Below are positions 1 to 54,497 of a stretch of DNA of 61,509 nucleotides, piece by piece. Source of the DNA: Raillietiella orientalis (Eukaryota); assembly GCA_036172245.1 (NCBI GenBank), contig JAYWIR010000150.1, positions 1-61,509 of the forward strand, given 5' to 3'. Under the pieces are notes generated by a model, which saw only the letters and a program-made list of their open reading frames with translations, was not told where the DNA came from and did no database searches. How positions within the stretch are numbered: position 1 is the first letter of the stretch; the number at the start of each line of letters is the position of its first letter. The translations under genes and the position numbers were made by a program.

Positions 1-2717
1 GATTCGACGAAGGGGCTCGCAACGAACGCCCGTATTTGCACGCGCGTCGTCACGAAAGGAACCCCAATGTCCGTCGCCTAGCCGAATACCGCGCCGGAGC
101 CGAGCGACAAGCCTGGCAATCCGGGTCAGCCAACATGCGGGATGACCTGGGCCGGGAACGTTCGTCCCCGTCTGCGGTACGGAATCTCGTGCGGTGTTTT
201 TGTTCCTCCCTTTACGCCAAAACACCACTCGAACAAGCCGGCTCGCGGCGATTGCTCATGAGTGGTTTTGTGGCGATAGGGGAGGAGGAGAGAGAAAGGA
301 TCGATGAGCCTTTCACGATCGGCGAAATTCTCGCCGGTATCAAAAGGCTTAAAAGGCGTAAGGCGCCAGGTGAGGACGGCTTGCCCGCGGAGTTCTTTCA
401 GAGTTTCGCGGAAGAGCTGGCCCCCCTAGTGCTCGAGTTGATAAGACGAATCCGAGACGAAGGCGATGTTCCCACCTCCTTTCGGTCAGCCAGGGTGAGG
501 CTCCTCCCGAATGGAGGAGACCTCAGGAAACTTTGCAACTGGCGTCCGATCACGATTGTGAACACGGACGTCAAGTTGATTGCCGGGCTGTGGGCGTCGC
601 GATTGGGGCAGGTGTCCAAATCCATAATTATCCCGGAGCAGACTTACGCTGTTCACGGGCCAAGTATGGAGGGCAGCCTCTTCTTCGCGAGCACATGGAT
701 GCACGCGCAGCGGAGTAAGAAAGAAGGGAGAGGAAAACTTTGCAACCCTACTTTGGGGCCGCCAGTGAGACAGGGTAAGGACCCTCATGCTGGGAAGGGG
801 GCCTTAGCGATCGCAGTCGACCTCCATAAGGCATTCCACTGTGTTGACCGGGAACTCCTCTTGGAGCTCCTGGGTCGCATGGGCTTCCCATCCTCCTTGC
901 TTAACAACCTGCGCTCTTGCTGGCGGAACGCGATAATCTCAATTACTTTCAGTGGACAAAAGGCGTATGGCGTGCCGGTGCGGCGGTGCAAAAGGCAGGG
1001 AGACAGCCTCAGCCCCCTGCTTTTTAGCACCTACGCTGAGTTGGTGCTGAGAGCGTACAGGGTGACTTTGGCCCCCTTGCCGAGCTCGTGCCCCGGCACG
1101 CCAGCCGTAGCGGCGTATGCCGACGATCTTCTGCTCCTCTTACCTATGTCCACCCCGGCTAAGGCGGTCGGAGATTTCTTCGACCTGCTTAGCCGTGGGG
1201 CCGGATTACAGGTTAACAGGGCGAAGTCGTCAGTGTTGCCAGTTGGAGAGACGTGGGCAGGACAGCAGGACTGGGTCCGTCTGGGGATCTTCACGGTGAG
1301 GTGCATCAAGTACCTCGGTGTGCCGTTGGGGGACTTCTCTCCTGCGGAAGCGTGGACCAGCTGCCTCCAAAAAGTCGAGACGGCGATCGGCCCGTTCCTG
1401 GAAGGCAAGTTTCACTTGCCGGAACGGGCCGCGGTTTGGAACGCCTTCGCGGCTTCCATCCTCCGCCCCTTGCTTTTTGTTTGCCCCGCCCCCGTGGAAT
1501 CAAAAAAGCGGACGAAGGACCTCCTGCGCATAGCTCTTTAAGGCAAGGGGAGGCCCCGAGTCCCTTTGAAGGACTTGTGCGCTCCGCGTCGGGACGGCGG
1601 TCTCAGCATCTTGACGCTGAAGCGCGTGGAAATCCAGCTGCTATGGCGTACCCTCGACATCGCAGCGAAGATGTGGAGCACCGCTTGGTACATTTCTGCC
1701 CGCCTCCTGGCCAGGCGTGTGTCCCGCTGCGAAGGACTCGCATCGTTTCTTCTGTGCCCTGGCCGGAAGATTCGAAGATGCAGTCTACTGCTCGGCCGCA
1801 TGGCAACCCTGGCAAAGGAGAACGACTGGATGGTTTGAGGCCCTGCCAACTCCTTCGCTTGGCTGGAAGAGACTGCTGGCACCTTGGCCAAGCAGAACCA
1901 GAGGTGCGAAGAACGGATGAACTGCCTGCGAGACGGCTTTTACGCCCGCCGCACTCTCCGTGAAATTCTTGAATTTCCTACGAGTTGCACGTGGGCGGAA
2001 GGCACAGCCTTTGTTACGCCGATGCCCTTCGTCCATAGGGCGCTTTACGAAAGCCGGAAGCCAAGGTGGCAAGTCTGCTGCCGTTTCGCATGCAGAGAGA
2101 AGATGATGAGCGCCTGGACCATGGGTGAGTTGACAGATGCAACGACCCCTAGTCTCCTGTTGCGTGGATTTAGAAGATGGGGCGAGCTGCTCGGCATTCG
2201 ATTGGAAGACCTGAAGTGGCCCCCGGTTCTACTTGGATCCAAAATTCTTCCCCTGAAGTGGCGGGAATCGGCGCTTCTGTGGCTGCATTGGTGTCTACCC
2301 TGCAACGCGCGCCGCTCCCACTGGACGCGGGGAAGAGTAAATCCTGCGTGTGCCAGGTGTGGGGAGCGGGAGACGCTCCCCCACCTCTTAGTTGAATGCC
2401 CTGCCGTCCGGATTCTTTGGGATCGTCTGAAAACGGCCCTTCGGATACCGGATGGTGGCAATGTTGGAAGTGTCTTCAGTCTTGTCTTCGTGCGGGACGC
2501 CCTCAGTCCAGCCGCAGCGCTGGCAGCACTTTGCTGCATTCGTGGTATCGTGGCGGCCTGGAGTGATGCCGAAGATGAAGGCGGCATCGTTAGGGACGTC
2601 ATCGAGTATGCTTCTCGCTTCCTGCAGAGAGCTCTCCGATGGCCCCATCTGGGAAAACTGAAAATGGAACTAGAAGGCATCCTGCAGAGGATGGGCGCTC
2701 CCAGCAGTTTTCTGTGA
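1..2717 (+). pseudogene. LINE ORF2 (RT and zf-RVT-like finger) with in-frame stops
   Basis: ORF pieces 36-1541, 1566-1838 and 1884-2717 are in one frame, separated by TAA (1539-1541) and TGA (1836-1838). Confidence 0.92.
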
Positions 2718-2923
2718 TCCGTTACCGGCCCTCCGAATTTTTTTTTTTTTTTTTTTTTGTGGTTTGTTTTTCTTATTTATTTTGTTTTTGTTTTCTCTCC
2801 ATCCCCCTCCACTGCCGAGGAAAGCCACACCGGGCTGCGTCCCGGTGTCCCGGCAGTTCCGGTATTGCGTGGCCGTCAGTGGGGCCTTGTACCACGTTCT
2901 GTATTGACCGTCATAATGTTTTT

Positions 2924-2952
2924 AATAAACGTCCCGGCGTATCCGGGTGGCA
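2924..2952 (+). other. Conserved LINE 3'-terminal signal (AATAAA plus GC hairpin); representative of 9 occurrences
   Basis: aataaacgtCCCGGcgtatCCGGGtggca; also 5455-5484(-), 28868-28897(+), 31457-31486(-), 37296-37325(+), 39827-39855(-), 52121-52151(-), 56783-56812(-), 61427-61456(+). Confidence 0.9.
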
Positions 2953-3840
2953 TCGCCGAAACCTGGAGGAAGTTGATGGAGGGGAAACTGGTCACAGAAC
3001 TCTCGGACTGAGCGTTTTATTTTGTCCCAGTCAGCGAGAGTCTGCAGTTCGCAACTACGCAGGAATGCGCGCAGATCTTCGCGCGCTCCTGCGAGTCGCA
3101 ACCAGTCCCCCAGCAGGCGCCACGCTTCGGATGGTGGACCTCTGTCGCGCGGATGAATGTTGATCACTAGTCGAGGGTGATCGGACAGCTCCGACGCAAT
3201 TGCTCCTCGAGTCCCCACCCGCGTACACAAGTGGTTATCGAGGAACACGTGGTCGATTCTGCTTCTCGCCACGGCTTCATCGGCCAACAAGTTGCGTGTG
3301 TGCATAGCCGCACACAACTCGTTGACCAATTGTGCTTGTATGTCGGGCGCTTCCGACAGCAGGCGGACGTTGAAGTCTCCCGCTATCAGATGCGGCTGCC
3401 GCACGCCTGCTTCGGCCAGCCAGTCTCGCCGCAGGGTTTCGAAGAACGCAGTGCGTTCTGCTAGCCTGTGACTGGTGCAGGGCGCGTACAGGTTCGTGAC
3501 TACGAGGTCGAATCGATTCGGACCACTTAAGGACAAGTTGTCCGACTCGACATTCCTCGTCGAACTGTGCACTGCGCACCGCATTGGCGACGGCCGGCTT
3601 CAGCAGGAAGGCCACTCCGCGGTAGTGGTCTCCTACACCACGCCAAAGTAGCCTAGCCCCTGTGAGCCTCTCGTTTTCCTGAACGTCCTCTGCTCTCAGG
3701 GCATGCACCTCTTGAAGAAGTGCCAGATCGAAAGGTCGCAGGGTGTCGGCCACGCTACGCCTCTTGCATTCGCTACGCAGCCCGTTGACATTCCAACAGG
3801 CTATACGCAGCTGCCGGCAAGAGGCGATTCCACGCATCAT
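2951..3840 (-). pseudogene. LINE ORF2 APE endonuclease fragment, starting at the ORF2 ATG
   Basis: MRGIASCRQLRIACWNVNG, LLQE, YAP, GDFN, IDHVF and SDH motifs; one frameshift; cut at PPGFGD by the 3' end of element 1-2952. Confidence 0.9.
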
Positions 3841-5454
3841 GCTGCGAGACTTCAACCTGGTGCTCCTGCAAGAGACGCACGTTCTCAGAGCAGGAGATTT
3901 CCAGGAAATCGAAAGCATCGCAGGAGGGCGGCTACTGTGGAGGAACGGAAACGACCGCTCCTGCGGAGTGGCGTTTATGCTTAAGCCAGCCGTCGACAAC
4001 GCACTGCGCAGCGTCAGGTTCGACGAGGACAGTCGAGTTGGGCAGCTTGCGTTAAAGAGGTCCGACTCGATCGATTTCGTGGTGACGAACCTGTACGCTC
4101 CGGTGAGCAGCCACAGGGCCGAGGAACGCACTGCGTTCTTCGAATCCCTGCGGCGAGACTGGTTGGCTGAAGCAAGCGTACGGCGGGCGCACCTCATCGC
4201 GAGCGACTTCAATCTCCTCCTGCTTGCAGGTGCGCCCAGCAGTCGAGCACAACTGGTCAACGAGTTGTGCGCAGCAATGAATGCGCGCAACTTGTTGGCC
4301 GGTGATGCCGGGAGAGATCGGAACATCGATCACATGTTCCTCGACAACCAATTGTGCACGAAAGTGGGAACTCGAGGAACGCTCCCGGCAGAGCTGTCCG
4401 ACCATCCACGGCTCGTGCTCGAGTTGCATCCGCGGAATAAGGGCCCTCCCTTGAAAACGTAGCGCCTGCCAGGGGACTGGTTGCGCCTCGCAGAGCGGCG
4501 GAACCTCTACGCGCCTTCCTGCGAGGATTCCATCTTGAGACGCTCGCGGACTGTGACGAAATGAAGTGCTCAGTCCGCGAGTTTTGCGACCAGTTTCCCC
4601 TGGAACGTCTTCCGCCTAGCTTCGGCGATGGGGTCAGGAACGAGCGGGCCTACCTTCAGGACCGCTGGTATTCCAGGCGTTTCGACATCCGTCGCTTGGC
4701 GGAATTCAAAGCTGAGGCGGAGAGGCAGGCCTGGCAGTCAGGCTCGGCCTGCTTGCTGGACCATCAGAGCCAAGAACGCTCCAGCCTAGCTCAGGTAAGC
4801 CGCATCGTGCGGAAGTTTTATTCCTCCTTGGACGCGGCACTAATACCGGAGCGCCATTTCGCACAGCGCCTGCTGCAGGATAGCCTCCCCGCGCTCAAGG
4901 AGGAGGATCGTTTCTGGTTCGGAGAACCGTTCACGATGGTGGAGGTCGTCTCCGCCATCAACAGGCTGAAGAACAGGAAGGCACCAGGGGAGGACAGGCT
5001 GCCCGCGGAGTTTTACAAACACTTCTCGCCAGAGCTGGCCCCCCTGGTGCTCAGGTTAAGTGCGCTGATCCGCGAACACGGCGAAGTTCCCGCCTCGTTC
5101 CGGTCAGCAAAAGTACGTCTCCTACCGAAGACAGGAGACTTACGCAACATTGGCAACTGGCGTCCCATCACAGTAGTGAATGCGGACGCAAAGTTGTATG
5201 CCAAGTTGTGGGCTGAGCGTTTGAGGCGGGTGGCCGCTTCCGTGGTGAGTCCCGAGCAGACCTATGCTGTTCCCGGACGAACCATGGAGGCCAACCTGCT
5301 TCTCGCCAGAACATGGTGGCAGTTGCGACAACGCGTTGCCCATGAAGGTCAAGGGAGTCTTGTGCTCCCCTCTGACCAGGAACACCGGATGGAGGGTGGG
5401 AGGGACTCGGCGGAAGCCTTTGCAGACGCGGTCGACTTGCGCAAATCATTCGAT
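3841..5454 (+). pseudogene. LINE ORF2 fragment (APE to RT motif DLRKSFD); left part of a host element
   Basis: LLQETH, SDFN, SDH, KAPGED, WRPITVVN; stop at 4460-4462 and a frameshift; ends at the insertion of 5455-11099. Confidence 0.9.
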
Positions 5455-5679
5455 TTTCACCCGGATTTCTCCGGGTCGTTTATTAAAAAAATAAACTTTG
5501 TAAACAAATTATTAATGGCAGTTCCAATGCTCCAGCCAGAAGCTAAGAACCACAACGCCTGCCAATTCACCGGTTTCTAGACCGGTACGGTTCACCAAGG
5601 CAGCAGGGAAGAGGGGAAAAACAAAAAAACTAAACAAAAAAAAAAAAAAACACAAAGGGTGGGAGGGAACGGGAAGGGA

Positions 5680-8600
5680 TCACTGTTGCTGCTGGGGCCG
5701 CATCATCCCCCTCAGGATGCTGGCAAGCTCTTGTTTGTTGTAAACATCCAGGTGGGGCCATCGCGACGCCCTCCTCAGGAATTCGGAGGCGCACTGCATG
5801 GCTTCCTGATCGCTAGGTCCTCCCGTCGCCGTGACCAGTCGGCGACGATGCCACGAAGGCAGCACAAGGCTGCTATCGAGGACGCTGGCTGCAGGGCGTC
5901 GGCAACGAAGAAGGATTTTAGTGCGTATCTGGGGTTGCAGCAAGGGATACCGATGGCCGCGGCAAAGCGGAACCAAAGGGGCGGAAGGGCATCACAATCC
6001 ACTAGGAGGTGGGGGAAGGATTCCTTTTCCCCGCACCTTACACAATTAGGATCCACCGCTCCCCAGGTACAGTGGTGTCGACGGGCGTTGCAGGGCAGTC
6101 CCCAGTGCTGCAACAGGAATGCCGATTGTTGCCATTTTAGGGGGAGGATGGAAGTGTTCATAAGAATCGCGGGCCACTTCAGATGTTCAATCGGAACATC
6201 CAGCAGCGCTCCCCAGCGCAGAATTCTATTAGGAGGCGTACTCGGTGTCGCAACATCAGTTAGCTGGCCCGTCTTCCACTCTCTCTGCTTCTTCTCCTTC
6301 CCGGAGATTTTTATTGTAACCTCTCACTTCTCCGCAACATCGCTGTGCTGTTGTTCCACTTGGGAGTCCAGCGCAGCAGCGAGGGGGGTTCTTCCTGACC
6401 ACGCTCTCTTCTTAGGATACTCCACGATCTCACAAAGCGTGCACCTTCTGTAACACCCAAACAGGAACCTTCGTTCCTGATGGGAGGGTTGCATGCCTAA
6501 CTGGTCCCACGTACGAACGGTTTCCTGCAACCAGGCACTACCGTTCACGGGGAGACAGGTGATCCATCCTTGATGTTTCCTTGCCAGCGCAGCCCCCCTC
6601 GTAGCTGAAGGCCACATCGGTTGATGCGGCTTTGATAGAGTGCAAGAAACGACGTAAGTCCCTTCTTGTCGGTGGCTTGCTGAAGGAGGAGACGTGCAGG
6701 GACGCACCAACAGGTGCACCACAACTCCGGCACAAGTGCCAAAATCCGGAACTGGAGCTGCAGCTCCAGCCGCTCCAATGTCAGGAGGCCGAGACCACCG
6801 TCCCGACGCGGAGCGCACAAGTTCTTCAGGCGGACTCGGGGCGTCACGTTGCCCCAAAGGGCGATACGGAGAAGGTCCTTCGTCCGCTTTTTGATCCTCT
6901 CTGTGGGGGGACAAACAAACAGCAGGGAACGGAGTAGAGGAGCCGCGAACATGTTCCAAACCGCGGCCCTTTCAGGCAGGAAAAACCTGCCGCCTCGGAA
7001 CGGGCCGATAGCCGTCTCTACTTTTTGAAAGCAGGCGGACCACGCTTCCGCTGGGGAGTAGTCCCCCAACGGCACACGAAGGTACTCGAAGTACCTCACC
7101 GTGGGGATCCCCAAATGGACCCAGTCCTGCTGCCCTGCCCACGCCGCACCAATTGGCATCACGGACGACTTCGCCCTGTTCACTGTAAGCCCTGTTCCTC
7201 GATTCAGCAGGTCGAAGAACTTCTCGACCGCCGAAGCCGGGGTGAACATAGGGAGCAGTAGCAGGTTGTGGTCCGCATATGCTGAAACCGCAGGCGTTCC
7301 GGCGCACTCATATGGCAGGTTAGCCAGTGTTTCCCTGTACGCTTTCAGTACCAACTCAAAGTAGGTACTGAAGAGCAAGGGGCTCAGGCTGTCTCCTTGC
7401 CGGATACCACTTCGCACCGGCACGCCGTAAACAGTATGCCCGCTGAAAGTAACATTGATTAGCGCATCGTGCCAGCTAGAGCGCAGATAGGCCAATAATG
7501 AGGCCGGGAAGCCCAAGCGTTTTAAAAGCTTCCGCAGTAGATTCTGGTCGACGCTCTCGAATGCTTTACGCAAGTCGACAGCGACCGCAAGTGCTGCCTC
7601 CCCCATCCGACCATGCGTCGCATGACTGACGGACTCACCGGAATTCCCGGTGCGCATCAAGCCCCTTTCGTGTTGGGGCTCTAGCCAGGTGGAAGCGTGG
7701 AACAGGTTCGCCTCCATGCTTCGCCCTGGAACAGCATACGTCTGTTCCGAGATGACGAAGGCGTTTGCAACCCGTCCCAAACGCTCAGCTTAAACCTTAT
7801 CTATCAACTTGGCATCCGCATTCACTATTGTGATGGGACTCCAGTACTTCATGCTCCTCAGATCTCCTCACTTAGGGAGAAGCCGCAACTTTGCCGAACG
7901 AAACGAGGCGGGAACGTCACCTGTCTCGCGTATCAGCAAGGTGAGTTGATGTACCAGGGGGGTTAGCTCAGCCATCAAAGTTTGATAAATCTCCGCGGAC
8001 AGGCCGTCCTCCCCTGGAGCCTTTCGCCTCTTGAGCTTTCCGATGGCCGAGATGATCCCGCCCATCCTGAAAGACTCGTCGAGGAACTTTTTCTCCTGCT
8101 TCCCAAACGCAGGAGCGCCTTCCGGAAGCAGGACTCGTGAGAAATCCCGCTCGGAAGGCGTTCTTGCGTACAGGGAGGAGTAAAACCGCCGCAGCAGACC
8201 GCGGATTTGAGCGCGTGCCGAACGCTCCTGGCCCTGATCGTCCAGCAAGCTGGCCGATCCTGACTGTCAGGCTTGCCTCTCGGCTCCCGCTGTGTATTCC
8301 GTCAGCCTGCGGATGTCGGGGGACCTGGCGTAGCGACGAGCCTGCAGATAGGCTCTTTTGTTACGTACCCCGTCCTTAAATCTCGCAGGTAGGCGGTGCA
8401 GAGGGAACTGGTCGCAGAACTCCTGGATCGACCGTTTAAAGCGGTCCCAATCCTGAAGTGTATGCATCTTAAAGCTCCGTATAAACAAGCGGAGATGTTC
8501 CGTCGCGTCCAGGAGCTTCAGCCAGTCCCCTGGCAAACGCCACGCTGACGAGGGGGGGCCCCTGTCGCGCGGATGGATTTCAATCACGATTGGTCGATGG

Positions 8601-9261
8601 TCGGACAACTCGCACGGCAACTTGCAGCGCCTGCTTACACGAGTGCACAGGTGATCTTCAAGGAACACGTGATCGATGTTGTCCTCCATTCCTGGTACAC
8701 TGGCCAACAAATTACAAGTGTGCACCGCCGCGCACACCTCGTTGACCAGGGCACGTTCGTGATTCGGCCCTTCCGATTTCAGACGAACGTCAAAATCGCC
8801 TGCAACCGGATGGGCATTCCGCACGCCTGCCTTGGTCAACCAGTCGCGATGGAAGGCAAGGAAAAATACTTTCCTGGCCCTCCTGTTCGTCAGGGCCGCT
8901 CCGCTCAGGCCTAAACGTTCGAAACGATCAGGTCGATCGAGTCGGACCAGCTGAGAGTCAGCTGACCGACACGACCGTGATCGTCGAACCAAACTCCACG
9001 TGCGGCGACCTCGATGGCGGGCCGAAGCAGGTTGGCGACAGCACAACTTCTCGATGTTCCACACCGATACCACAGCCGCCCTCCGTTGATGCGTTCGATC
9101 TCCTGGGCTTGTTCTGCAGAGATCACATGGATCTCCTGCAGCAGAACAAGGTCGAACGATCCTAGAATGGCGGCCATGTCTCGTCTCCTGCCGGCGTCTG
9201 TCATGCAGTTCACGTTCCAAATGGCGATGCGCAGACGACGGCGGTAGGAGATTCCCGGCAT
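5680..9261 (-). pseudogene. LINE ORF2 (APE-RT-CCHC), multiply disrupted
   Basis: MPGISYRRRLRIAIWNVN, GDFD, SDH, KAPGEDG, DLRKAFE, QGDSLSP, AYADH (decayed YADD), CVRCGEKESFPHLLVDC. Confidence 0.9.
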
Positions 9262-11005
9262 TACTGCCGGGAAGATGACGGTGTGGGATAACGCGCCACT
9301 TCCGAGGCGGGTGAGATGACCATTAGGGTTTCAGCCTCCTCAGGCACCTTGGGTACCTTACCGTCTTCAACCCCCTCCATCTCCTCCGTGTCTGTGCGTG
9401 GTGGTCTCTCGGGTGACGATTCCTGGCATTCTCCCACGCTCATGGCACCCTCGCAGTCGGAAGTCATCTCCACGCCTTCGACCTGGAGAGGGGCTTTCCG
9501 GGGTATGCTGGACTTCCTTCCACCCTTCCGGCGGGGTGCCGCGGAGATGGAAACTTGGTTTCCGGCCTTCGCTTCGGGGTCGAAAGTTACCGAATCCTCG
9601 GTGGAGGCCGGACGCCTCACTGCCTTTTTGCCAGCCTTGGAGGGGTCTGGCTGCAACGATGCAGCCAGCTCCTCCGCCGCACGCTCGAAGGCGGCGTCAT
9701 CGCTGACGGTCTCGAAGGCGGCGTCATCGATGACGGTCTCGATGACGGACGCTTCCGCCGGTTCGCTCCCCACGCTGTTGACATTTTCAACAGTAAGTTG
9801 CTGGTCGGTAGCAGCGATTTCTACCTTGCGGCGTTCGGCGGGGACGCGTTCCACGACGACGCTGCATTCTTTTAAATTCTCGCTAACCTGCTGTTTTTTA
9901 TTTTGGTAGGCGAGCTTTTTTTCGATTCGTCGTTCTTTCTTCGACTTTTTTTTCTTTTTCTCTGTGACTTCTTGCCATTCCAACACCTGACCGCTTTTGT
10001 TAATCTTTTCGGCATTCGTTGTCGGGATGTTGGCTGAGGCCTGGACCACGGGAGTGGGTGGCACAGCTTGAGCGGCAGCCTTCGCCGCCAGTTTTTTGTG
10101 CAGCAGCCGCGCGCGTTTTTTTAGGTTCCTAGAGGAAATCACGCGCACAGCGGATTGTGAACACACTTCCTTCGTGTGGCCCATTGTCCCGCATACCAAG
10201 CACTGTACGTTGGGGCACCTCCTTTTAAGGTGTCCCGACGTGTTGCAGAAGTTACAGTATTTGGGCTTCCAAACGTACCAGAGGTCGACGCTTTCTCCGC
10301 CGACCACCAGTTTGTGGGGAAGGGTAGAGCTCTGCCGATCGGTTACACTGGCAGCCGTGAGGCCGCACTGAACTCTTGTATTGTCCTCGAAAGGACTAGG
10401 CTTGCTCCATACTGCATGGACCGTGCCTTCTTTTCATAACGCGGCGCGTAACTGTTCTTTCCGCATCCCCGCGGTAACTCCTAAATGGTGGACCACCATA
10501 CTGTGGTCCGCCGTAACGGGAAGGAGCCTGCGTGTCCCCATTACCACGGGGGTTTTAAGCAGACGTTGGGACAGGTCTGCATGTTTGCAGATCACCTCTA
10601 CGTACTGCCCCCCGCTAGGAATGATCATAGCGCAGAGCTCCTCTTCTTTAACATCGAGAGCGTGCATTTCCTTCAATATGGCGCGCGCACTCTCAGCAGA
10701 ATGCAAATTTCCTACCTTGTAGAATAGTGATGGGTTATACCCCTCTTCGACATAGGCAGATAATTCCGTCGCGGCTGCAGGCGATGGCGCCAATACGACG
10801 GCGCTCCACGCCCGCGCTGCAGCGGGGACCGGTTTGTGGGGGCGGACGCCCCCACCTCCTTCGCCACTGAAGGCGACGTTGCCGCCGCCCCCTGGCACTC
10901 CACCTTCTCTGGAGGCAACGTTGCCGCCGCCATGTGGCACTCCATTTCTTCAGGAGGCGACGTTAGAACCGCCCCCTGACACGTACTGGTGGTCGCGTCA
11001 GGCAT
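9261..11005 (-). pseudogene. LINE ORF1 (gag-like, two CCHC knuckles), frameshifted and with a stop
   Basis: CNFCNTSGHLKRRC and CLVCGTMGHTKEVC; DDAAFERAAEELAA motif; split over ORFs 10712-11029, 10434-10940 and 9261-10307. Confidence 0.88.
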
Positions 11006-11099
11006 TGCTGCTTGATCGACCACCACCACACACGAAGCCTACACCCAGGGACGGTTCCCGGCACGAGGAGCACCGAGGAAACACGTCCGCTCTAGCCGA

Positions 11100-11885
11100 C
11101 GTAAAGCTTTCGACTTCGTCGACCAGGAGCTCCTTCTGGAGCTCCTGGAACGCATGGTTTTCCCGGCCGTGCTCCAGTCCCACCTGCGCTCCTGCTCGCG
11201 CAACGCGTCAATTAATATTGGTTTCAGCGGCCGGCACGTGTACGGCTTGCCAGTCCGCCGCGGTATCCGGCAGGGTGACATCCTGAGCCCCTTGCTCTTC
11301 AGCATCTACTTCGAGATGGTGCTGAGGGCATACAGGGTAACTCTGGCAACCCTGCCGAGCTCGTGTCCCAGCACGCCTGCCGTGTCAGCCTATGCAGACG
11401 ATCTTCTGCTGCTGCTTCCCGGGTCCACCCCGGCGAGTGCACTTGAGGACTTCTTCGAGTTGCTGCGCCGCGGGATGGGCCTGGAGGTGAACAGGGCGAA
11501 GTCGTCCATGGTGTTCGTCGGTTCGGCGTGGGCTGGACGGTCGGATTGGATCCGCTTGAGGATATCCACGGGCAGGTGCTTCAAATACCTCGGCGTACCG
11601 TTGGGGGACTTCTGCGCAGCAGAAGCCTGGTCCGACCGTCTCCAAAAGGCAAGTTCTACTTGCAGGAACTGGCCGCGTTGTGGAACGCGTTTGCGGCTCC
11701 CCTCCTTCGCCCCTTACTTTTTGTTTGCCCCGCCCCTTATTTAATGCGGAAACGAGCAGCGGGCCTCCTGAGGACAGTCCTTTGGGGCAAAGGGAGGTCC
11801 CGTGTGAGGCTCAAAGACTTGTGCGCTCCACGTAAGGACGGTGGACTTGGCGTACTTACGCTGGAGCGCATGGAACTACAACTTA
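11100..11885 (+). pseudogene. RT fragment from RKAFD onward; right flank of the 5455-11099 insertion
   Basis: RKAFDFVDQ, RQGDILSP, AYADD, KYLGVP, CAPRKDGGLG; internal deletion near 11650. Confidence 0.88.
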
Positions 11886-13172
11886 GATCGAGGCAGCACA
11901 GGGCTGAAATCGAGGCCGCTATGGGCAGGACCCCGCGATGCGGAGTTCCAGGCATATGTGTCATCAGGATACATGCCAGCACTTCGTTATAAGTTCAGTG
12001 GGCCACTTAACGGGAGAATCGGTCGTGAGCTCAATGATGAGCTCGTCCGGATAGGCGTTCGCGAGGAGGAACTCCTTGCCATAATGCCTGCTGGCAGGAT
12101 GGAATATACGAAGATTCGGTGCAAGAACGCAGCACTTGTGCAGCGCCTTCTCCGTACGCCGTTGACCATCAATAACAAGGAAGTCCTACATACCGCGATG
12201 GACGACTCTTTTGTCGTTCAATTGTGCGACATCGAACCGGAAATCTCCGACCGCGATGTCGTAAGTGTGCTGGCGAAGTTCGCCACCGTGCACCCTCTGT
12301 GGAGGAGGCCAAATCCTCTAAAGGATTTCCCCTCTGTCCACATTGGACAAGCCTCCGCGCGGATCACCGTCGCGAACAGGCGTGTTGTGCCTGAGCAGTT
12401 GCAGGTGAACGGCACGGTCGTTCACCTGTGGTTCATCAGCCAGACTCGCGCGTGCGAGCAGTGCGGCAAGGAGGGGCACCGAATTAAAGAGTGCCCCTCT
12501 CCAAGATGCCGCTATTGCAAAGATTCCGGGCACGAAATCAAAAAGTGCCCGGTACTTGCAAGAAAAAGAGCCGCAGCGGAAATTCGTCGGGTTCAAGAGA
12601 CCACTGCACGAAAAGCCGCAGCGGCAAATAAAAAACGTCGTCCGCAAAAACTCGCAAAAAACCACGAGCGATCCGCGGATGAAAAGAAAGCATCCCCGCC
12701 CGCAACGCCCCGAAAGGGGAAAGTCACGGCGGGGAAGCCAATTCAAAAGGGGCGCGAGGGTTTGACGCGTGCCGTGCCTTCCCTCTCTGGCGAACTCGCA
12801 GGCACTTTTCCGAGCCTGGAACCAGGGAATCTCCGTAACACCCTGGAGGGAAAGGTAGGAAAACAGGAAGATCGCAACAGTGCGAAGACTTCTTGCCCCG
12901 TTCCGTTGTCCCTTCCGAGTTCCGGACAGCCCCACTGCAGCGCAGGCCCCACTGCAAAGGCTACGAAAGCCGTAAAAAGCAGCGTCGCGACGAGCAATAG
13001 CACGCTGCATGCAGTCGCCCCATCGCCGACTCGGCAGGTTTCCCCAAGTCCCACAAGGGGTGGGGTAAGTTTATTTTTCTATAAAAATACAAAATTTACA
13101 TTCGCACTCTCATTCACTCAATACAATTATTTTGCACTTGGGGGTCCTTGGGTTTCACTAGAGTTCTGCTTT

Positions 13173-16100
13173 TCAGGGGGGAATTCCAGCTGCATGGTCC
13201 CGGGCGTCGTCCTGGATCCTCTTCAGGATGAATCGGTACGTCCAGGCGTGGATCTTCCCGCAGTTCCTGATGCCGATTTCCCTCTTCAAGAGCCCTTGTA
13301 GGATCTCCATCGGTGGTGCGGCTCTTCTGGCTTTCCTCATTTTCCACCACCGCACAAGTATGGCGGTGATGAAGAGGGCTATGGTCGTCCTCACCATGGG
13401 ATTGTAACAGGGAACATTACCATCCCCATGAAACATCCCGGCGAGGATCTCCATAACGGACTTGTTGGTAAGTCCTATGATCCTTTTCAGGATCAGCCAA
13501 TCATGCAGGAGTGTGGGACACGTCAAGACGTGAAGTCTCGTGTCGTCGTCTCCACATGCTGCGCAGTCTCGGTCTTCCCGTCTTCCTGTAAAGTGCTGCA
13601 ATCGGGATCCACTCTGGATTCCTCCGTGATAAAACATCAGGAGCTCATCCTGGGTGCCCGGCGGAAGGTCACTCCTCCAGAGCGTCGTGCCGATCCCTAA
13701 CAGGTTGAACCGTTCACTCCCGTAGCGTTCGGTGGCTTCCTGGAGGGCACTGGTGTCACCGTCGTTTTCTTGGATAAGCCTTCGGAGGTTTGTTCTGGTT
13801 ACCCTCGACCATGCGAAGTCGTTGTGGTTGAACCACACTTCGAAGGTCCTGTGGGTAAACCTTCCTAACATCATCTCTGTATACCGAAGTATACGTGTTT
13901 GATGTAGGTAGCCTCCTCGCCTCCACTCCTGGATTTGTTGAAGGGTAACTCTGGACCGCTGGTGGATCCAGCTTCTCGTGTCCGGCGGGACAGGAAGCAA
14001 CCAAGGGATCACCAGCATGGACTCGTCCTGCCAGAGTTCCCTGCTTCGCGGCACGATCTTTATTTGGTGCTTCCGCACCAGCCGTTGCTTCCTCCTCCAG
14101 GTCGGGTCGATTTTGTTCCATTTGCCTGCTCGGCCTAGCAGCGCAGTCATCAGGCCTTTCGAGTTGTTTAGCAACAACGCGTAGGCCCTGTGCGCCGCAT
14201 ACGGCCAGTCATCCCAGTAAGTGGCAATGTCCAGGATGTGTCGCGTATCCATGATTTCCATGGAATGTGCAAGCGACTTCATCCCGGAACCGCCTTCTTC
14301 CCTGGGACGACACAGGGGTTTCAGTCTTACTCTTGGGAGATAGTGGCCCCAGAGTGTTTTTCTTTGCAGCTTGTCGAACTCCCTAGTAGTGTCCTTGTTC
14401 ATCCTCGCGAAGGCCGCCCCGAAGAGCACTTTCGGAAGGAGTACTCCGTTCCATATGTTGGCCTTTCGCTTCATCCCAAGGTCCGTTCGGGTGTACTTGG
14501 CTGCTTCCTTGGCCGTTTTCCCCAGGATTTCTTTCCACAGCAGCTTCGACGCAGAGCCGTCGCCGATGTAGACTCCCAGGTACTTGGCCGTGTCCACCGT
14601 ACGGAATCCACTACCCGTTAGAGTGGAGGGATCCAGGATTCCGACGGGCAAAAGCTGGCTCTTCTGGGAATTGATTTTTAAGCCCAAGCCCTGTTCCATC
14701 TGGTCCACCACATCCAGAAACGCACGCTGATTTTTCTCTCCCTTGATGAAGAAGAGTAGATCATCGGCGTATGCCAGATGGGTAAGACGCTGGCTATCGA
14801 TGGTAATCCCACTTAGTCGTCCGCTCTTCTCGATAAAGGACGACAACGCCTCCATATAGATGACGAACAGCATCGGACTTAGCGAGTCGCCCTGTCGGAC
14901 TCCTCGTTCCATCCTGATTGCTGCCGTCTCCTGGCCGTTGATACTGATCCGGCAGTACTGGTTCTGGAGTACCGCCCTCACAAAGTTACTGAAGTGTTCC
15001 GGAAGCCCTAGCTTCTCCAGAAACTTCAGCAGCATCCTGTGGTCGATGGAGTCGAAGGCCTTCTCCATGTCAGTGAACACCAGCACCAGGTTCTCGCCGA
15101 CGTATCGACTGAGTCCAACAGTGGCCTGGGCACACTTGACATTGTCCGACATGTGTCGTCCTGGGACTGCACATGTCTGGACCGGAGAGATCAGCCTCGA
15201 CATGACCTTGCGTAAGCGGTTGGAACAGATCTTCGCCAACCACTTGGCATCGGAGTTTAGAATCGAGATTGGCCTCCATTGGGCGATCTGGGTAGAGTCG
15301 CCTCCTTTCGGCAGCAATCTCATCCGACTCTCGTAGAAGGACTGAGGTAGTCTGCCTTCTTCCCGGATGCAGAGGGTCAACTGGTGGAACAAGCGCAGGT
15401 AGGCGTGCGGGTACCGCTGATAGTGCGTGATGGGTACACTGTCAGGGCCCGCTGCCACGTCCTTGCGAAGTTGCCCAAACGCAGTCTTCACCTCTTCTTC
15501 GGAGAACTCCTCCTCCAGTCTGTTCCGCTGGAGGTCGTCGATCCTCTTCTCGAGATAGCTCAAGAAGGCCTGTTGACTAGAGCGACACAGCTGTTGTCGC
15601 CTGAAGTGTTTCGTGTAATGCCTGTGAAAGGCATCCACGATGTCCTCAGACGACTGTCGCTTTTGGCCGTCGTACTGGATGCAGAAGATATCTGTTGCCA
15701 GATTTCTCTTCTCCAGCACGCCGACTTCCTTTTTTATGTTATTGAGGACGTACCGACTCTCGTACTGATCGAAGTACTTTGAGAGGGAGCGATCTTGGAT
15801 GTTCAGCTCCCGGTACGCCTCTTGCCTCAAGCGCCTATCCCCGAACTGCATGTTCGCAAACAGGTGTATCCTGTGTTTCAGGCTGTCCCAGTCGGCGACT
15901 CTTCGGATTGTTGTTGCCTTCAGAATCGTCTCCAGGACAGCCTGATGTCCGGGATGAATTTCGAACCAGGCGGGCATGCTGATGAGCGCCACCCTGGTGC
16001 CTTGCCTCCGCCGAGGATTCTCCGTTCTTAGGGAAAACCGCACCAGGGGGTGATCGGACACCGTGGTCATAATGTCTCGAAAACCCTGGATGCGATTCCC

Positions 16101-16691
16101 AAGTTCGGTGCTGTGCAGGACGTGATCGATTGGCTTGTGGCTTGCTGTTCGCCAGACCAGTCCGAACTCCCCGGATAGCCGTCGATACGCCGTCCTTCCT
16201 CTGGCGTCTTCCGAATGAATGATCTCATCCAATATGTTGAGATCGCCAGCAACAATCACGACGTCCTTTGGGGCAACCTTTTCACGGAGTGCTGCATGCA
16301 GCGCCTCCGCACAACGATGTTTTAGCCTGTGCGGTCCGTACACGTTCACCAGGATGAGGTGAACAGTAGCGGACCAGGCGAGTCGCACGCCGATGATTCG
16401 TCCGGGTTGGGGACAGAACACTTCCAGAATAGTGGGGGCCAAGTTGTTCTTGATTAGGACCGCCACTCCCTGCGTGTTCCGTTCTCTCTCGCTGACGAAA
16501 ATCTGCCCGTTGTATCGCCGTTCCATTTGCTGACTAATCTCGAGACCCATCTTGTGGGTCTCCTGCAGGCACACTATGTCTTGTTGTGCGATGGTCCGCA
16601 CAATCCTTCTTCTTTTTCCCTAGTCGACCATACCGTTTACATTCCAGGAGGCGATGTTCAGCCTCCTGGCGGTCGATAGGGAAGAGGCCAT
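13173..16691 (-). pseudogene. Lineage-B ORF2 (APE-RT-CCHC), intact except one early TAG at ~16620-16622
   Basis: 1142-aa open frame downstream of the stop with LQETH, GDLN, SDH, FTDMEKAFD, QGDSLSP, AYADD, KYLG, CAACGDDDTRLHVLTC; ATG at 16691 aligns with the copy 2 start. Confidence 0.93.
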
Positions 16692-16704
16692 AAAAGGGGA
16701 AGAC

Positions 16705-18492
16705 CTATTTCTTGGCCTTCCTGTGCTTCTTCTGTCTGCGAGAGCGTGCTCTTCCAGACAATGAAGAAGCAGCGGGCTTCTCGCTGCCGGCGTCACTCTC
16801 TGTTCCGGTGAGGTCGGTTACTTCCGCCTCCTCCGTCGAGTGTTCGTCCCGCTCGATCTGTTTTCGAGATAGCGTCTCTATCTGGACCTTGGCGCAGAAG
16901 TTCGCCTTTACGTCGAGAAGCTGTTCCTCTAGCTTTTCGCGCTCGGTGACCTCCACAACCTGGTTGACCTTCTCCTGTGCATTGCAGATCTTCTGCAAGA
17001 TTTTCTCTTGCTGAGGACCGCTCTGCACCTCTAGGACTACATTAGCCAGTGATGCCAACTCCTCCGTAGATTGCAGGGCCTCCTGTGACACCGGAGTGGC
17101 TTCGGCTTTTTCTTCTTCCGCGCCTTCCTGCGCTACCTCCATCTTCTCGCCTTCTTGCTCTTCACCTTCCAGGATAAGAGGGGTTTCTTGCTCCTTGACG
17201 AGCATCCTTCTCTTTCCTTTCTTCCCTACCTGTATGAAGCCGTCTTCCGATACCGGGACGGCTTCTTTCACCTTCTTCGGCCTTCCTGCCTTCTGAGGCT
17301 GTTCGGCCTCCTTGATGTTTCTCTCTCTCACGGGAGAGAGACCTCGAATCCTTCTGCAGTTTTCAAACTCCGGACAGCTCCATTTCGCATGTCCGTGTTT
17401 CTTGCAGAAGGAGCACACCTCCGGCTGCGGGCAGTTTCGTACTTGATGTCCTAGTTTGCCGCAGCGGAAACAACGACACGTTGGGCAAGCCCCGGCCCTG
17501 TGGCCGAACTGCTTGGACCCGGTGCAGAATACCGGTTGTTGCCGTTAACGCACATTCACTCCCTGGGATTGTTCGTCAATAACGGCCAATGCAGGGATCA
17601 CCGCTCCCTCCCTCAACTTCATCTTGGCGATCATGTCGCCAGAAAATATGTTTCCAGAGAAGTTCTGGAAATCAAGGTCCAGAACTTCCCCAAACTGCTC
17701 CAAGTAATTCCACACCGCTAGTTGCAGTGTGAAAATGGAGGTGCCGTTTAAAAAGACGGTTGTGTATGGCATCTCGCCAATACCACAAACCATCCGTCCT
17801 TGTATATTGATCCCATTCTGGATCAATTTCTCTCTAATGTTTTCACAGTCTGTAAAGACTGTGAACCCGTTGTTCGATGGAATGATCGCCTGAATGCGAT
17901 CAAAGTCTATGTCCGTCTTGTCGAGGGACAAATAGACCTCCCTGATGTTATTAAATTTTATTAGCCCCGTCTTGAAGATAATGGGCTTCACGTTGGGGCC
18001 TATTTCGACTAGTGGTCGGTCCACTTTTAGTACTTTTCCGCTAAGCGGCTTACCGAATTTCCTAGGTGGGTGGACACTCGCCTGTCCAGCCGCCACCGAC
18101 GCATAAGAAAAGGGCTGCGACGCCGCAGCCGAACAAGATGGCGTCGCTCCCTGCACCGCGTGGACGCCCGTGGGTCCCGCCTGGGACGCCACCGACGTGG
18201 GCGCAAACCTCGACGTTGCCGCCGTTACCGCCGCGGGCGGCACCCTCGGCATCGCCGCCGCAGGCGCGACCTTCCCCGCCGCGGTCACGATCCTCGGCGT
18301 CGCCGCCGCGGGCACGACCTCCGCCGTCGTCGCCGCGGGCACGACCTTTGGCATCGCCGCCGCCGGCGCAGCAAAGCCCGCCGCGGGCGCGATCCTCGGC
18401 ATGCCTGCCGCCACCTCGCCGTTGCCGCACGTTACCTCCATGGCTTCCATGGGGGACGACGGTCTCTCCACTCCTCTTCTAGGTGCCTGCAT
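16705..18492 (-). pseudogene. Lineage-B ORF1 copy 1, premature TAA at 17545-17547
   Basis: Collinear with the intact copy-2 ORF1 at offset 5638; Tyr codon changed to a stop just before the zinc knuckles. Confidence 0.9.
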
Positions 18493-18981
18493 CCTGGCAG
18501 CTGGTCTTGCTGCACGGGACCACTGCAGGTCTTTTGCCGCGATCTCCTCGCCGCTTCTTTTTTTTGTTTCTTCTGGAAAACTTCCCCTCTCCGCGCACGC
18601 ACGAGCACAATGAACTGATTAAGTTGTCAAGCGCACAATACTTCGAGCCGCGGAGCAAGTTCACCGACTCGGCAGGTTTCCCCAAGTCCCACAAGGGGTG
18701 GGGTAAGTTTATTTTTCTATAAAAATACAAAATTTACTTTCGCACTCTCATTCACTCAATACAATTATTTTGCACTTGGGGGTCCTTGGGTTGCACTAGA
18801 GTTCTGCTTTTCAGGGGGGAATTCCAGCTGGATGGTCCCGGGCGTCGTCCTGGATCCTCTTCAGGATGAATCGGTACGTCCAGGCGTGGATCTTCCCGCA
18901 GTTCCTGATGCCGATTTTTCTCTTCAAGAGCCCTTGTAAAATCTCCATCGGTGGTGCGGCTCTCCTGGCTTTCCTCATTTT

Positions 18982-21900
18982 TCACCACCGCACAAGTATG
19001 GCGGTGATGAAGAGGGCTATGGTCGTCCTCACCATGGGATTGTAACAGGGAACATTACCATCCCCATGAAACATCCCGGCGAGGGTCTCCATAACGGACT
19101 TGTTGGTAAGTCCTATGATCCTTTTCAGGATCAGCCAGTCATGCAGCAGTGTGGGACACGTCAAGACGTGAAGTCTCGTGTCGTCGTCTCCACATGCTGC
19201 GCAGTCTCGGTCTTCCCGTCTTCCTGTAAAGTGCTGCAATCGGGACCCACTCTGGATTCCTCCGTGATAAAACATCAGGAGGTCATCCTGGGTGCCCGGC
19301 GGAAGGTCACTCCTCCAGAGCGTCGTGCCGATCGCTAACAGGTTGAACCGATCACTACCGTAGCGTTCGGTGGCTTCCTGGAGGGCACTGGTGTCACGGT
19401 CGTTTTCTTGGATAAGCCTTAGGAGGTTTGTTCTGGTTACCCTCGACCATGCGAAGTCGTTGTGGTTGAACCACACTTCGCGGGTCCTGTGGGTAAACCT
19501 TCCTAACATCATCTCTGTATACCGAAGTATACGTGTTTGATGTAGGTAGCCTCCTCGCCTCCACTCCTGAATTTGTAGTAGGGTAACTCTGGACCGCTGG
19601 TAGATCCAGCTTCTCGTGTCCGGCGGGACAGGAAGCAACCAAGGCATCACCAGGATGGACTCGTCCTGCCAGAGTTCCCTGCTTCGCGGCACGATCTTGA
19701 TTTGGTGCTTCCGCACCAGCCGTTGCTTCCTCGTCCAGGTTGGGTCGATTTTGTTCCATTTGCCTGCTCGGCCTAGCAGCGCAGTCATCAGGCCTTTCGA
19801 GTTGTTAAGCAACAACGCGTAGGCCCTGTGCGCCGCATATGGCCAGTCATCCCAGTGAGTGGCAATGTCCAGGATGTGTCGCGTATCCATGATTTCCATG
19901 GAATGTGCAGGCGACTTCATCCCGGAACCGCCTTCTTCCCTGGGACGACACAGGGGTTTCAGTCTTACTCTTGGGCGATAGTGGCCCCAGAGTGTTTTTC
20001 TTTGCAGCTTGTCGAACTCCCTAGTAGTGTCCTTGTTCATAATCGCAAAGGCCGCCCCGAAGAGCACTTTCGGAAGGAGTACTCCGTTCCATATGTTGGC
20101 CTTTCGCTTCATCCCAAGGTCCGTTCGGGTGAACTTGGCTGCTTCCTTGGCCGTTTTCCCCAGGATTTCTTTCCACAGCATTTTCGACGCAGAGCCGACG
20201 CCGAAGTAGACTCCCAGGTACTTGGCCGTGTCCACCGTACGAAATCCACTACCCGTTAGAGTTGAGAGATCGAGGATTTCGACGGGAAAAAGCTGGCTCT
20301 TCTGGGAATTGATTTTTAAGCCCAAGCCTTGTTCCATCTGGTTCACCACATCCAGAAACGTACGCTGATTTTTCTCTCCCTTGATGAAGAAGAGTAGATC
20401 ATTGGCGTATGCCAGATGGGTAAGACGCTGGCTATCGATGGTAATCGCGCATAGTCGTCCGCTCTTCTCGATAAAGGACGACAACGCCTCCATATAGATG
20501 ACGAACAGCATCGGACTTAGCGAGTCGCCCTGTCGGACTCCTCGTTCCATCCTGATTGCTGCCGTCTCCTGGCCGTTGATCTTGATCCGGCAGTACTGGT
20601 TCTGGAGTACCGCCCTCACGAAGTTGCTGAAGTGTTCCGGAAGCCCTAGCTTCTCCAGAACCTTCAGCAGCATCCCGTGGTCGATGGAGTCGAAGGCCTT
20701 CTCCATTTCAGTGAACACCAGCACCAGGTTCTCGCCGACGTATCGACTGAGTCCAACAGTGGCCTGGGCACACTTGACATTGTCCGACATGTGTCGTCCT
20801 GGGACTGCACATGTCTGGACCGGAGAGATCAGCCTCGACATGACCTTGCCTAAGCGGTTCGACCAGATCTTCGCCAACCACTTGGCATCGGAGTTTAGAA
20901 TCGAGATTGGCCTCCATTGGGCGATCTGGGTAGAGTCGCCTCCTTTCGGCAGCAATCTCATCCGACTCTCGTAGAAGGACTGAGGTAGTCTGCCTTCTTT
21001 CCGGATGCAGAGGGTCAACTGGTGGAACAAGCGCAGGTAGGCGTGCAGGTACCGCTGATAGTGCGTGATGGGTACACTGTCAGGGCCCGCTGCCACGTCC
21101 TTGCGAAGTTGCCCAAACGCAGTCTTCACCTCTTCTTCGGAGAACTCCTCCTCCAGTCTGTTCCGCTGGAGGTCGTCGATCCTCTTCTCGAGATAGCTCA
21201 AGAAGACCTGTTGACTAGAGCGACACAGCTGTTGTCGCCTGAAGTGTTTCGTGTAATGCCTTTGAAAGGCATCCACGATGTCCTCAGACGACTGTCGCTT
21301 TTGGCCGTCGTACTGGATGCAGAAGATATCTGTTGCCAGATTTCTCTTCTCCAGCACGCCGACTTCCCCTTTTATGTTATTGAGGACGTACCTACTCTCG
21401 TACTGATCGAAGTACTTTGAGAGGGAGCGATCTCGGATGTTCAGCTCCCGGTACGCCTCTTGCCTCAAGCGCCTATCCCCGAACTGCATGTTCGGAAACA
21501 GGTGTATCCTGTGTTTCAGGCTGTCCCAGTCGGCGACTCTTCGGATTGTTGTTGCCCTCAGAATCGCCTCCAGGACAGCCTGATGTCCGGGATGGGTTTC
21601 GAACCAGGCGGGCATGCTGATGAGCGCCGCCCTGGTGCCTTGCCTCCGTCGAAGATTCTCCGTTCTTAGGGAAAACCGCACCAGGGGGTGATCGGACACC
21701 GTAGTCATAGTGTCGCGAAACCCCTGGATGCGGTTCCCAAGTTCGGTGCTGTGCAGGACGTGATCGATTGGCTTGTGGCTTGCTGTTCGCCAGACCAGTC
21801 CGAACTCCTCGGATAGCCGTCGACACGCCGTCCTTCCTCTGGCGTCTTCCGAATGAATGATCTCATCCAAGATGTTGAGATCGCCAGCAACAATCACGAC

Positions 21901-22329
21901 GTCCTTAGGGGCGTCCTTTTGCCGGAGTGTTGCATGCAGCGCCTCCGCACAACGATGTTTTAGCCTGTGCGGCCCGTACACGTTCACCAGGATAAGGTGA
22001 ACAGTCGCGGACCAGGCCAGTCGCACGCCGGTGATTCGTCCGGGTTGGGGACAGAACACTTCCAGAATAGTGGGGGCTAAGTGGTTCTTTATTAGCACCG
22101 CCACACCCTTCGTGTTCCGTTCTCCTTCGTTGACGAACATCTGCCCGTTGAATCGCCGTTCCATTCGCTGGCTTATCTCGAGACCCATCCTGTGGGACTC
22201 CTGCAGGCACACGATGTCTTGTTGTGCGATGGTCCGCACAATCCTTCTTCTTTTTCCCTGATCGACCACACCGTTTACGTTCCAGGAGGCGATGTTAATC
22301 CTCCTGGCGGTCGATAGGCAAGAGGCCAT
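18982..22329 (-). pseudogene. Lineage-B ORF2 copy 2: open frame but catalytic Asp substitutions (FTE, YAND) and a premature C-terminal stop
   Basis: ORF 18982-22434; compared with copy 1, FTDMEK is FTEMEK, YADD is YAND, and WW is W-stop. Confidence 0.9.
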
Positions 22330-22342
22330 AAAAGGGGAAGAC

Positions 22343-24130: not shown

Positions 24131-24971
24131 CCTGGCAGCTGGTCTTGCTGCACGGGACCACTGCAGGTCTTTTGCCGCGATCTCCTCGCCGCTTCTTTTT
24201 TTGTTTCTTCTGGAAAACTTCCCCTCTCCGGGCACACACGAGCACAATTAACTGATTACTTTGTCAAGCGCACAATACTTTGAACCGCGGAGCAAGTTCA
24301 CTGACTAGGCAGGAGCAGAGCGATCTGCCGACTGTCAGGAAGGTGACTCCGTTGCCGCCTTTTAAATGCGTAGCGAAAGCAACGCCCCCAGAGAACGCAG
24401 CGAAAATCCCGGAGGTTTCCGCAACTACTGTCGCGGAAGCCTCCGAAAATCCCGAAGGCGAATGGAAGGTTGTGGAGAGGAGGAAAGAAAAATCTGCAAA
24501 AAGAGCTCCTCAACCTCAATCCCTGAGTTCTTCCAAAGGAAAAAGCAGTCGCGGAAATACGAAAACACGCGCCGCTTGTGACTCTTCCTAGGAAAAAGCC
24601 AGCCCCTTCAACGCGTGCAAGTCCGCTTCTGTGACCGCCGAGAAGACCATTCCGGTGCAATCGGACGGATGCAAGCGCACGTCGATCGTGCCACCATCAG
24701 ACTCCGCAAAGGAGTCCGATAGCGCAGCTGAAAGACGCGTAACTCGCGCGGGAGCGAGCGCCCGCAGGGCTGAAGCCTTGAGGCGTGACACACTCGCCGC
24801 GGAACGGCGAGAGCTCACCCCGGAAACCACAGGTTCTGAACCCGGGGAGGAGCTCTCGATTACTCTCTGCACAGTTGAGGCCGGTGGCGACCGCGCCCTC
24901 CAGCCCGTCGTGCTGCTTACTGCCCGCTCGCCGGGTGGGACGAGCACCACGGTCTCGCTTTCCCATCCGTG

Positions 24972-34068: not shown

Positions 34069-34084
34069 TATCAAGTGAAATCAA

Positions 34085-54484: not shown

Positions 54485-54497
54485 GCGGACGTGTTTT
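54485..54497 (+). promoter_or_regulatory. Conserved 5'-terminal motif (GA)GCGGACGTGT, candidate internal promoter element; representative of 6 occurrences
   Basis: Also 11081-11092(-), 30774-30785(-), ~35192-35203(-, degenerate), ~42790-42801(+), ~45226-45237(+); always within ~10 nt of an element 5' junction. Confidence 0.6.

Follow-up and report, generated by a model that had tools for sequence, protein, structure and literature searches.

How does a retrotransposon come to lie, in two places, against the same codon of a reverse transcriptase (RT) active site? The question is raised by contig JAYWIR010000150.1 of Raillietiella orientalis (assembly GCA_036172245.1), all 61,509 nucleotides of which make up the window analyzed here. 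At 5455-11099 a long interspersed nuclear element (LINE), which we call Y, interrupts the RT of another LINE within the conserved K-A-F-D codons of motif A, and a diverged paralog of its 5' end, Y', adjoins a second RT at the same codon. The original prediction offered two histories for this arrangement: repeated targeting of a conserved motif, or a single insertion followed by inversion. Our reading of the sequence favors, with good though not complete confidence, recurrent insertion that is antisense and site-specific and that strikes conserved codons in sibling LINEs, with the site set by the element's endonuclease and the products later shuffled by recombination. The features at Y are as follows.

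3800-5454, plus strand: host X1, a family-X LINE represented by its apurinic/apyrimidinic-type endonuclease (APE) and the N-terminal half of its RT; the last residues are V-D-L-R-K-S-F-D
5440-5454, plus strand: target duplication, copy on the 3' side (R-K-S-F-D codons), whose final base may be part of Y's tail
5455-11099, minus strand: element Y, a full-length L1-like LINE, antisense to its host and decayed
5455-5484, minus strand: Y 3' terminus, AATAAA and then a short G+C hairpin ending CCGGGTG-AAA, without poly(A)
about 5710-9192, minus strand: Y open reading frame 2 (ORF2), APE and RT, broken
9264-10949, minus strand: Y ORF1, gag-like, with a CCHC-type region and one in-frame stop
11084-11099, minus strand: 5' terminus of Y; a GGACG box lies 11 bases in
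11100-11114, plus strand: 5'-side copy of the target duplication, R-K-A-F-D codons
11100-11887, plus strand: host X2, the C-terminal RT half, of X1's family, cut off by a rearrangement at ~11887

The sequences flanking Y, CGC AAA TCA TTC GAT (5440-5454) and CGT AAA GCT TTC GAC (11100-11114), are identical at 11 of 15 positions, with three mismatches at third codon positions, just as predicted. The insertion had also been placed in a catalytic DxxKAFD motif; the location holds, with the correction that the duplicated 15-mer begins two codons past the motif Asp and takes in the motif Phe. If an ungapped offset is assumed from a hit between residues 65-208 and 593-738, this Asp and this Phe correspond to D600 and F605 of L1 ORF2p, a catalytic triad member and the gatekeeper, respectively (PMC10830420).

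X1 and X2 occupied the same position in the RT trees (support 72 for the N-terminal and 94 for the C-terminal half), and X1 branched outside the group of elements A, O, J and Y in the N-terminal tree (support 72). One public run matched the window (share 0.13; 490 records, 295 of them less than 90% alike), and a contig of this sole run is X1-like to 5380 and X2-like from 11100, the part between being unresolved. The matching tree positions, together with the joining of 5380 to 11100, therefore indicate that Y interrupts one host family. Among the 15 of the run's 25 joints that were listed, none connects 7570 to 11099, which is uninformative either way.

Y has accumulated seven stops in the 1131 aligned codons of its ORF2, carries R-K-A-F-E codons of its own at 7556-7570, and shares its termini with neighboring elements. 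The GGACG box of its 5' terminus presumably resembles the consensus of a downstream promoter element (DPE). Base 11115 would be the putative +1 of a candidate promoter if this box stands at +28. Two scars lie close by: a 30-base antisense scrap of ORF2 C-terminal sequence at 11891-11920 (87% to 5857-5886), where X2 joins a truncated gag of element R, and a head-to-head joining of X1 and another host, B, at their endonuclease starts (2951-4630), which forms a 73% inverted repeat and lacks both ORF1s.

Self-comparison and protein probes derived from the window revealed that it consists almost wholly of nested fragments of related LINEs. These lie in either orientation and have a gag-like ORF1 and an APE-RT ORF2; insertion into existing copies, a trait of Zepp and ZeppL elements, is thus seen over nearly its whole length. 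In Pfam comparisons RVT_1 scored on Y (E 3e-12) and on its relatives, zf-CCHC on three related ORF1s but not on Y's own, and Exo_endo_phos on element W only, to whose APE region Y and its kin align by tblastn. Taken across Y and its relatives, the elements have the constitution of APE-type LINEs, an ORF1 with a CCHC knuckle and an ORF2 with APE and RT. In a structure comparison whose 10 PDB hits held L1 and R2 ORFs only, and no R1 RT, the best-kept ORF2 (element R) was nearest to human L1 ORF2p (142 bits, versus 56 for R2), and the shorter RT piece of Y scored about equally on L1 and R2. Atlas neighbors carried RVT_1 and zf-RVT. Among 8000 scored candidates, one public protein relative reached 57% identity and the remainder at most 26%; other homolog searches otherwise gave at most 32%, and returned no reference Tx1 sequences. 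An Rfam scan of the window yielded 0 matches, and therefore an RNA-gene target is absent from it. In their layout (gag, APE, RT) the nested LINEs of the window are L1-like.

Six related elements end alike at their 3' side, with AATAAA followed by CCGGGTG (CCTGGGTG in element H) and 3-4 further bases, and in none of them is there the 3' poly(A) tail of mammalian-type L1. A GGACG-type box is common to six elements at the 5' side. With both termini known, true insertion junctions can be told apart from rearrangement junctions. A 3' hairpin conserved across the six elements was considered and dropped: the fold is strong in Y (z -4.4), and the other five do not rise above shuffled sequences (1/6 above). 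The hallmarks of target-primed reverse transcription, namely target duplication and 5' truncation, are present in the form of 13/13 matching bases around the 5'-truncated element L, a 13-base target around W, and the 11/15 around Y.

The second KAFD junction and its surroundings comprise three parts.

34085-35210, minus strand: Y', a paralog of Y (91.3%) represented by its 5' end and most of its gag; truncation point at 34085
35211-36006, plus strand: host Yh, the C-terminal RT half of a Y-family copy, starting at R-K-A-F-E codons
36007-42778, minus strand: recent inverted duplicate of 1-6774 (97.1-99.5%), with a copy of the X1/Y junction at 37326

Y' is identical to 9974-11099 at 1027 of 1125 positions (91.3%) and adjoins CGT AAA GCA TTC GAA at 35211, in the same register as the 5' junction of Y; both the paralog and its codon had been recognized correctly. 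The RT found there had been called a different one. It is a host other than X2 (~68% in the multiple alignment; 548/739 pairwise), but it belongs to Y's own family, with 704/796 positions identical to the Y RT (88.4%) and a sister position to Y in the tree (support 100). Hosts of the X and Y families are hit at the same base.

Relative to 1-7570, the region 35211-42778 is a mosaic: identity is 88.4% over 6775-7570, 99.5% (1764/1773) over 5000-6774 and 97.1% (4852/4997) over 1-4999. The duplicate block appears to meet Yh at a crossover that lies somewhere from about 6690 to 6775. Because the block adjoining 37326 is 99.5% identical to 5000-6774, the junction there is a recent copy of that at 5455, and it was rejected as an additional insertion event. 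The proposal that a single insertion and an inversion of the present Y produced the 34085-42778 arrangement also fails, as an inverted Y should be 97-99% like Y, and 34085-36006 is 88-91% like it. Identity between 1-7570 and 42778-35211 climbs from 97% to almost 100% over 5000-6500, resembling a recent gene conversion between inverted copies. A copy of element L is separated from the truncated gag of Y' by about 16 bases of filler (34069-34084) that match neither side. A second recent inverted duplication relates 31404-34068 to 57329-61509 (98.3-98.7%, with an internal deletion of 57957-59468), and the two inverted duplications suggest a repeated nested unit, roughly 55 kb long, with an inversion point that falls inside the window.

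Independent evidence for fixed insertion sites comes from other elements of the nest, which meet their hosts at a second motif.

2943-2966, plus strand: event 1 at the second fixed site; element A stops here with its 3' end, antisense in host B, directly after G-F-G codons
52108-52132, minus strand: event 2 at the second fixed site; element H stops here with its 3' end, antisense in host N51, at the same base as A
42767-42800, plus strand: 5' junction at the second fixed site; the head of G lies antisense, ahead of the G-F-D-E-G codons in host A

A (3' end at 2953) and H (3' end at 52121) both stop, antisense, after TTC GGC G of the G-F-G motif, just past the host endonuclease; in host A, this site is also where G has its 5' junction, near 42780. 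Sister elements thus behave alike at other conserved codons. The divergence of A from H bears the mark of purifying selection (differences at 112/323 four-fold versus 208/1293 zero-fold sites, p 1e-12), as does that of B from N51 (41/79 versus 103/359, p 1e-4). Since each pair diverged under selection, the junction must have arisen twice rather than been copied within a dead block. The host sides, B and N51, are only ~63% alike right up to the junction. A tree meant to relate families to sites gave conflicting groupings: A and H are sisters over the RT C-terminal half (98), but A and J over the whole C-terminal part (81).

Two copies of W, which lie head to tail with a 13-base target between and around them, are identical at 5383 of 5623 positions (95.7%) and show a synonymous excess (22/508 versus 54/2152, p 0.037). 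Independent copies at one nucleotide, the mark of a target-specific element, are therefore found at the G-F-G site (A and H) and likely for W, and the KAFD pair is a probable third case. Hand assignment gave eleven insertions (A, Y, Y', R, KJ, H, L, G, M and Z, with W taken as one), and 10 of the 11 are antisense (p 0.012, post hoc). Under random placement of 11 insertions, one coincidence of site has p 0.014 and two have p 7.5e-5.

These observations are best explained if the Y family is a target-specific, APE-type LINE that enters related LINEs, members of its own family among them, antisense and by target-primed reverse transcription, at a single base within the K-A-F-D codons of their RT motif A, duplicating 11-15 bases. 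A family-specific APE would nick the antisense strand of these codons, each insertion would cost the host its RT, and repeated insertion would build up a LINE island. Inverted duplications and crossovers between like elements would later have reshuffled the products, which would account for the mosaic at 36006 and probably for the mismatched flanks. The reverse-transcription route is suggested by LINE biology and by the perfect 13-base duplication around 5'-truncated L; Y and Y' would then be separate insertions, and the APE domain would be what reads the target site.

A number of points weigh against this explanation. The KAFD site is represented in the window by two 5' junctions and only one independent 3' junction. 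Between Y and Y', gag divergence looks neutral (differences at 12/166 four-fold and 50/621 zero-fold sites, p 0.87), and the Y and Yh RTs show a synonymous excess that falls short of significance (20/141 versus 43/495, p 0.077). Because divergence is neutral-like, a dead duplicate is compatible with these data. The sites of different elements have no common consensus, Z lies in sense orientation, and some hand-assigned insertions, such as A and G, may be two ends of one event. Decay alone would give 4 mismatches in the 15 flanking bases of Y with p 0.04-0.10 at 9-12% divergence, and 2 mismatches in an 11-base core with p 0.26-0.39. Finally, no junctions outside the window were recovered from the metagenome or viral contigs scanned. 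The conserved 3' end gave 8 metagenome matches, none of which hit the LINE probes or the window; the one examined had bacterial-looking ORFs, and all 8 were dropped as chance. The conserved-end pattern gave 5 matches in viral contigs, with 0 confirmed. As regards the sites, a single consensus for all insertions was abandoned, since they share none; specificity would therefore have to be set family by family.

The neutral pattern of Y and Y' is what two decayed copies of one master should show, and likewise two duplicates of one dead copy; a known duplicate pair, A and A', is neutral in the same way (14/469 four-fold versus 56/1691 zero-fold). It is thus necessary to consider a history in which one ancestral KAFD insertion underwent an old (~9%) segmental duplication, an inversion between its own and its flanking KAFD codons, and recombination near 6775/36006. 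The Y' head and the Yh RT are indeed both of the Y family, ~9-12% from Y with neutral-like divergence, and the window provides precedents in its two recent inverted duplications, its several deletion junctions, and an A/G junction of like geometry. We nevertheless judge this history unlikely. Yh sides with Y at 191 of the 232 sites that separate Y from X2 (with X2 at 32, with neither at 9), and does so from the first informative site on; consequently, the inverting crossover would be confined to the first 8 of ~800 homeologous bases, in one of the 18 exact blocks of at least 8 bases (two of them 21 long) that Y and X2 share. Yh is also more distant from Y than Y' is (11.6% versus 8.7%; Fisher p 0.044), and 5 of the 16 terminal bases are not the same in Y and Y', which is excessive at 8.7% divergence (p 0.0096). 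All of these tests are post hoc, and the three smaller signs, the crossover position, the divergence gap and the terminal bases, favor separate insertions. The ancestral-insertion history further needs two duplications, one inversion and one crossover, and leaves the A/H coincidence, the W tandem and the antisense bias unexplained. Of the two histories originally offered, repeated targeting is thus the better, with independent support from the second fixed site, though for the KAFD pair taken alone, with its neutral-like divergence, repeated insertion is no more than probable.

The flanks raise a different alternative, which concerns the means of targeting. Flank identity is 11/15 for Y, 10/13 for KJ and 11/13 for W2, and 13/13 for both the 5'-truncated L and W1. 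Around Y, KJ and W2, seven of the nine mismatches leave the amino acid unchanged (expected fraction 0.25, p 0.0015), as do four of five once junction-near bases that may belong to the element are dropped (p 0.016; both post hoc). Because the mismatches are mostly synonymous, paired flanks appear often to come from different host alleles and not from decay. Probably, two same-site insertions in different host copies recombined; another candidate is that the donor's upstream flank was carried at the RNA's 5' end. Both routes presuppose repeated use of one site.

Targeting might, moreover, proceed by RNA-DNA pairing and not (only) by the endonuclease: the RNA would start in the upstream target copy, carry ~16 target bases, anneal to the same codons, and could overwrite the 5' duplication. 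An A-(G/T)-T-C word stands 27 bases upstream of the GGACG-type box in three of six full-length heads (Y, Y' and M; background 0.011, p 1e-3 with Y and Y' counted once), one base outside the 15-mer in both Y and Y'. The target-supplied transcription start that the initiator and DPE spacing would imply is putative. The mismatched flanks of full-length Y, KJ and W2 and the perfect flank of 5'-truncated L would fit such carry-over, but full-length W1 has a perfect duplication, recombination between same-site insertions accounts for the mismatches equally well, and heads G, K and Z lack the word at that spacing. A precedent exists in melanogaster-group R1, which brings along 28S bases from upstream of its site, and these anneal at the 5' junction (PMC2718515). 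Such 5' pairing sets the second integration step and not the first nick. On balance we find it quite improbable that pairing directs the insertions.

That there is no sequence targeting at all, merely random pile-up in a heterochromatic island with junctions shared through gene conversion or through breakage and repair at conserved codons, seems to us very improbable: diverged copies are indeed most identical at conserved motifs, and the patchy identity of the region (99.5%, 97%, 88%) resembles conversion-like exchange, but intact element termini meet host codons, which homologous exchange between ORFs cannot create, the A/H host sides are only ~63% alike up to the junction, and the antisense bias goes unexplained.

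Recurrent antisense insertion can also be given a bolder form, which we offer as a speculation and consider doubtful. A guild of sibling LINE lineages would partition conserved ORF2 codons (KAFD, G-F-G, D-A-K-L, G-G-R-L and others) as private sites, inserting antisense so as to destroy a competitor's enzyme; the transcription start would be borrowed from the opposite strand of the target, and a 16-base target copy in the transcript would guide its return. If true, this would be retrotransposon-on-retrotransposon homing with a built-in target memory, the eukaryotic equivalent of group II introns that home into the ORFs of introns, with a landing site that cannot drift away.

Among known systems, the closest in behavior are the Tx1 families, of which Tx1L inserts into Tx1D, Tx1-Mar into Mariner-N4_AMi, and Tx1-8_Crp and Tx1-4_AMi into LTR (long terminal repeat) retrotransposons (PMC4494074). 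Tx1 elements are, like Y, APE-type LINEs with a gag-like ORF1 and family-specific preferences for fixed positions inside other mobile elements. Their described targets are DNA transposons, LTR elements, small nuclear RNA (snRNA) genes and microsatellites, whereas here the target is coding sequence of sibling or own-family LINEs, entered antisense at an active-site motif. The likeness is one of behavior. Drosophila R1 elements have a fixed bottom-strand site, an 11-14-base duplication and tandem copies separated by that duplication, and in one subgroup the RNA carries upstream target bases (PMC2718515). The APE-type, fixed-site insertion with a short duplication is common to R1 and the window elements, and the W1/W2 tandem resembles R1 arrays; the R1 target, however, is the 28S rRNA gene and not a LINE ORF, and the RT here is L1-like by nearest solved structure.

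Zepp and ZeppL are green-algal L1-clade LINEs that insert into existing copies (PMC8226300, PMC3446292). Like the window elements they are L1-like and form nested clusters tens of kb long, but their arrays are described as consisting mostly of 3' ends of one family, with one cluster per chromosome, at the centromere, and the descriptions consulted mention no fixed codon, antisense rule, or sibling families with separate sites. In Methanosarcina acetivorans, group II introns home into related intron sequences, and the nests, balanced by recombination, offer a perpetual target (PMC4424553). The repeated site-specific homing of a retroelement into its relatives, and the resulting nests, would be analogous to what Y displays. 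Group II introns are guided by intron RNA and splice themselves out, which the LINE here cannot do, so that it breaks its host; this is an analogy and not kinship. The literature consulted, mainly listings and abstracts without Repbase Reports, held no LINE that targets RT codons of sibling LINEs, and a prior description is possible. The feature is real, and it is most likely a site-specific LINE in the active-site codons of its relatives, working like Tx1 or R1 and nesting like Zepp.

The choice of target has consequences of its own. Target-specific LINEs find safe sites in rRNA, snRNA, telomeric and microsatellite repeats and in certain DNA and LTR transposons. As a target, LINE active-site codons would exist in many copies, do the host no harm, be replenished with each transposition, and be fixed by the victims' own selection, and each insertion into them would remove a competitor. 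Targeting of sibling LINEs offers a testable route to dense LINE islands, and the closely related APE domains, whose sites differ, form a natural series that should be useful for learning how endonuclease specificity changes.

Several further insertions were found in the window. The W copies (13039-24300) belong to a distant, nearly intact LINE family and lie antisense in the gag of element R; the ORF2 of W1 is an open frame of 1148 residues. Full-length KJ (54483-61456) is antisense at the D-A-K-L codons of the N-terminal part of an RT, with flanks matching at 10/13 and all three mismatches synonymous; its host halves, H and O, both group with A. L (56784-57861), which is 5'-truncated, lies antisense in the G-G-R-L codons of the KJ endonuclease within a perfect 13-base duplication (56771-56783 and 57862-57874). 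Antisense junctions with intact termini also occur at 28897, where the R 3' end lies just past the Q-E-I-H region of the M endonuclease, and at 30786, where the M 5' end precedes the R-N-L-Q-D-W codons of O. Element Z, at 45223, follows directly on the A-G-D-F-N codons of the G endonuclease and is the sole sense insertion among the 11.

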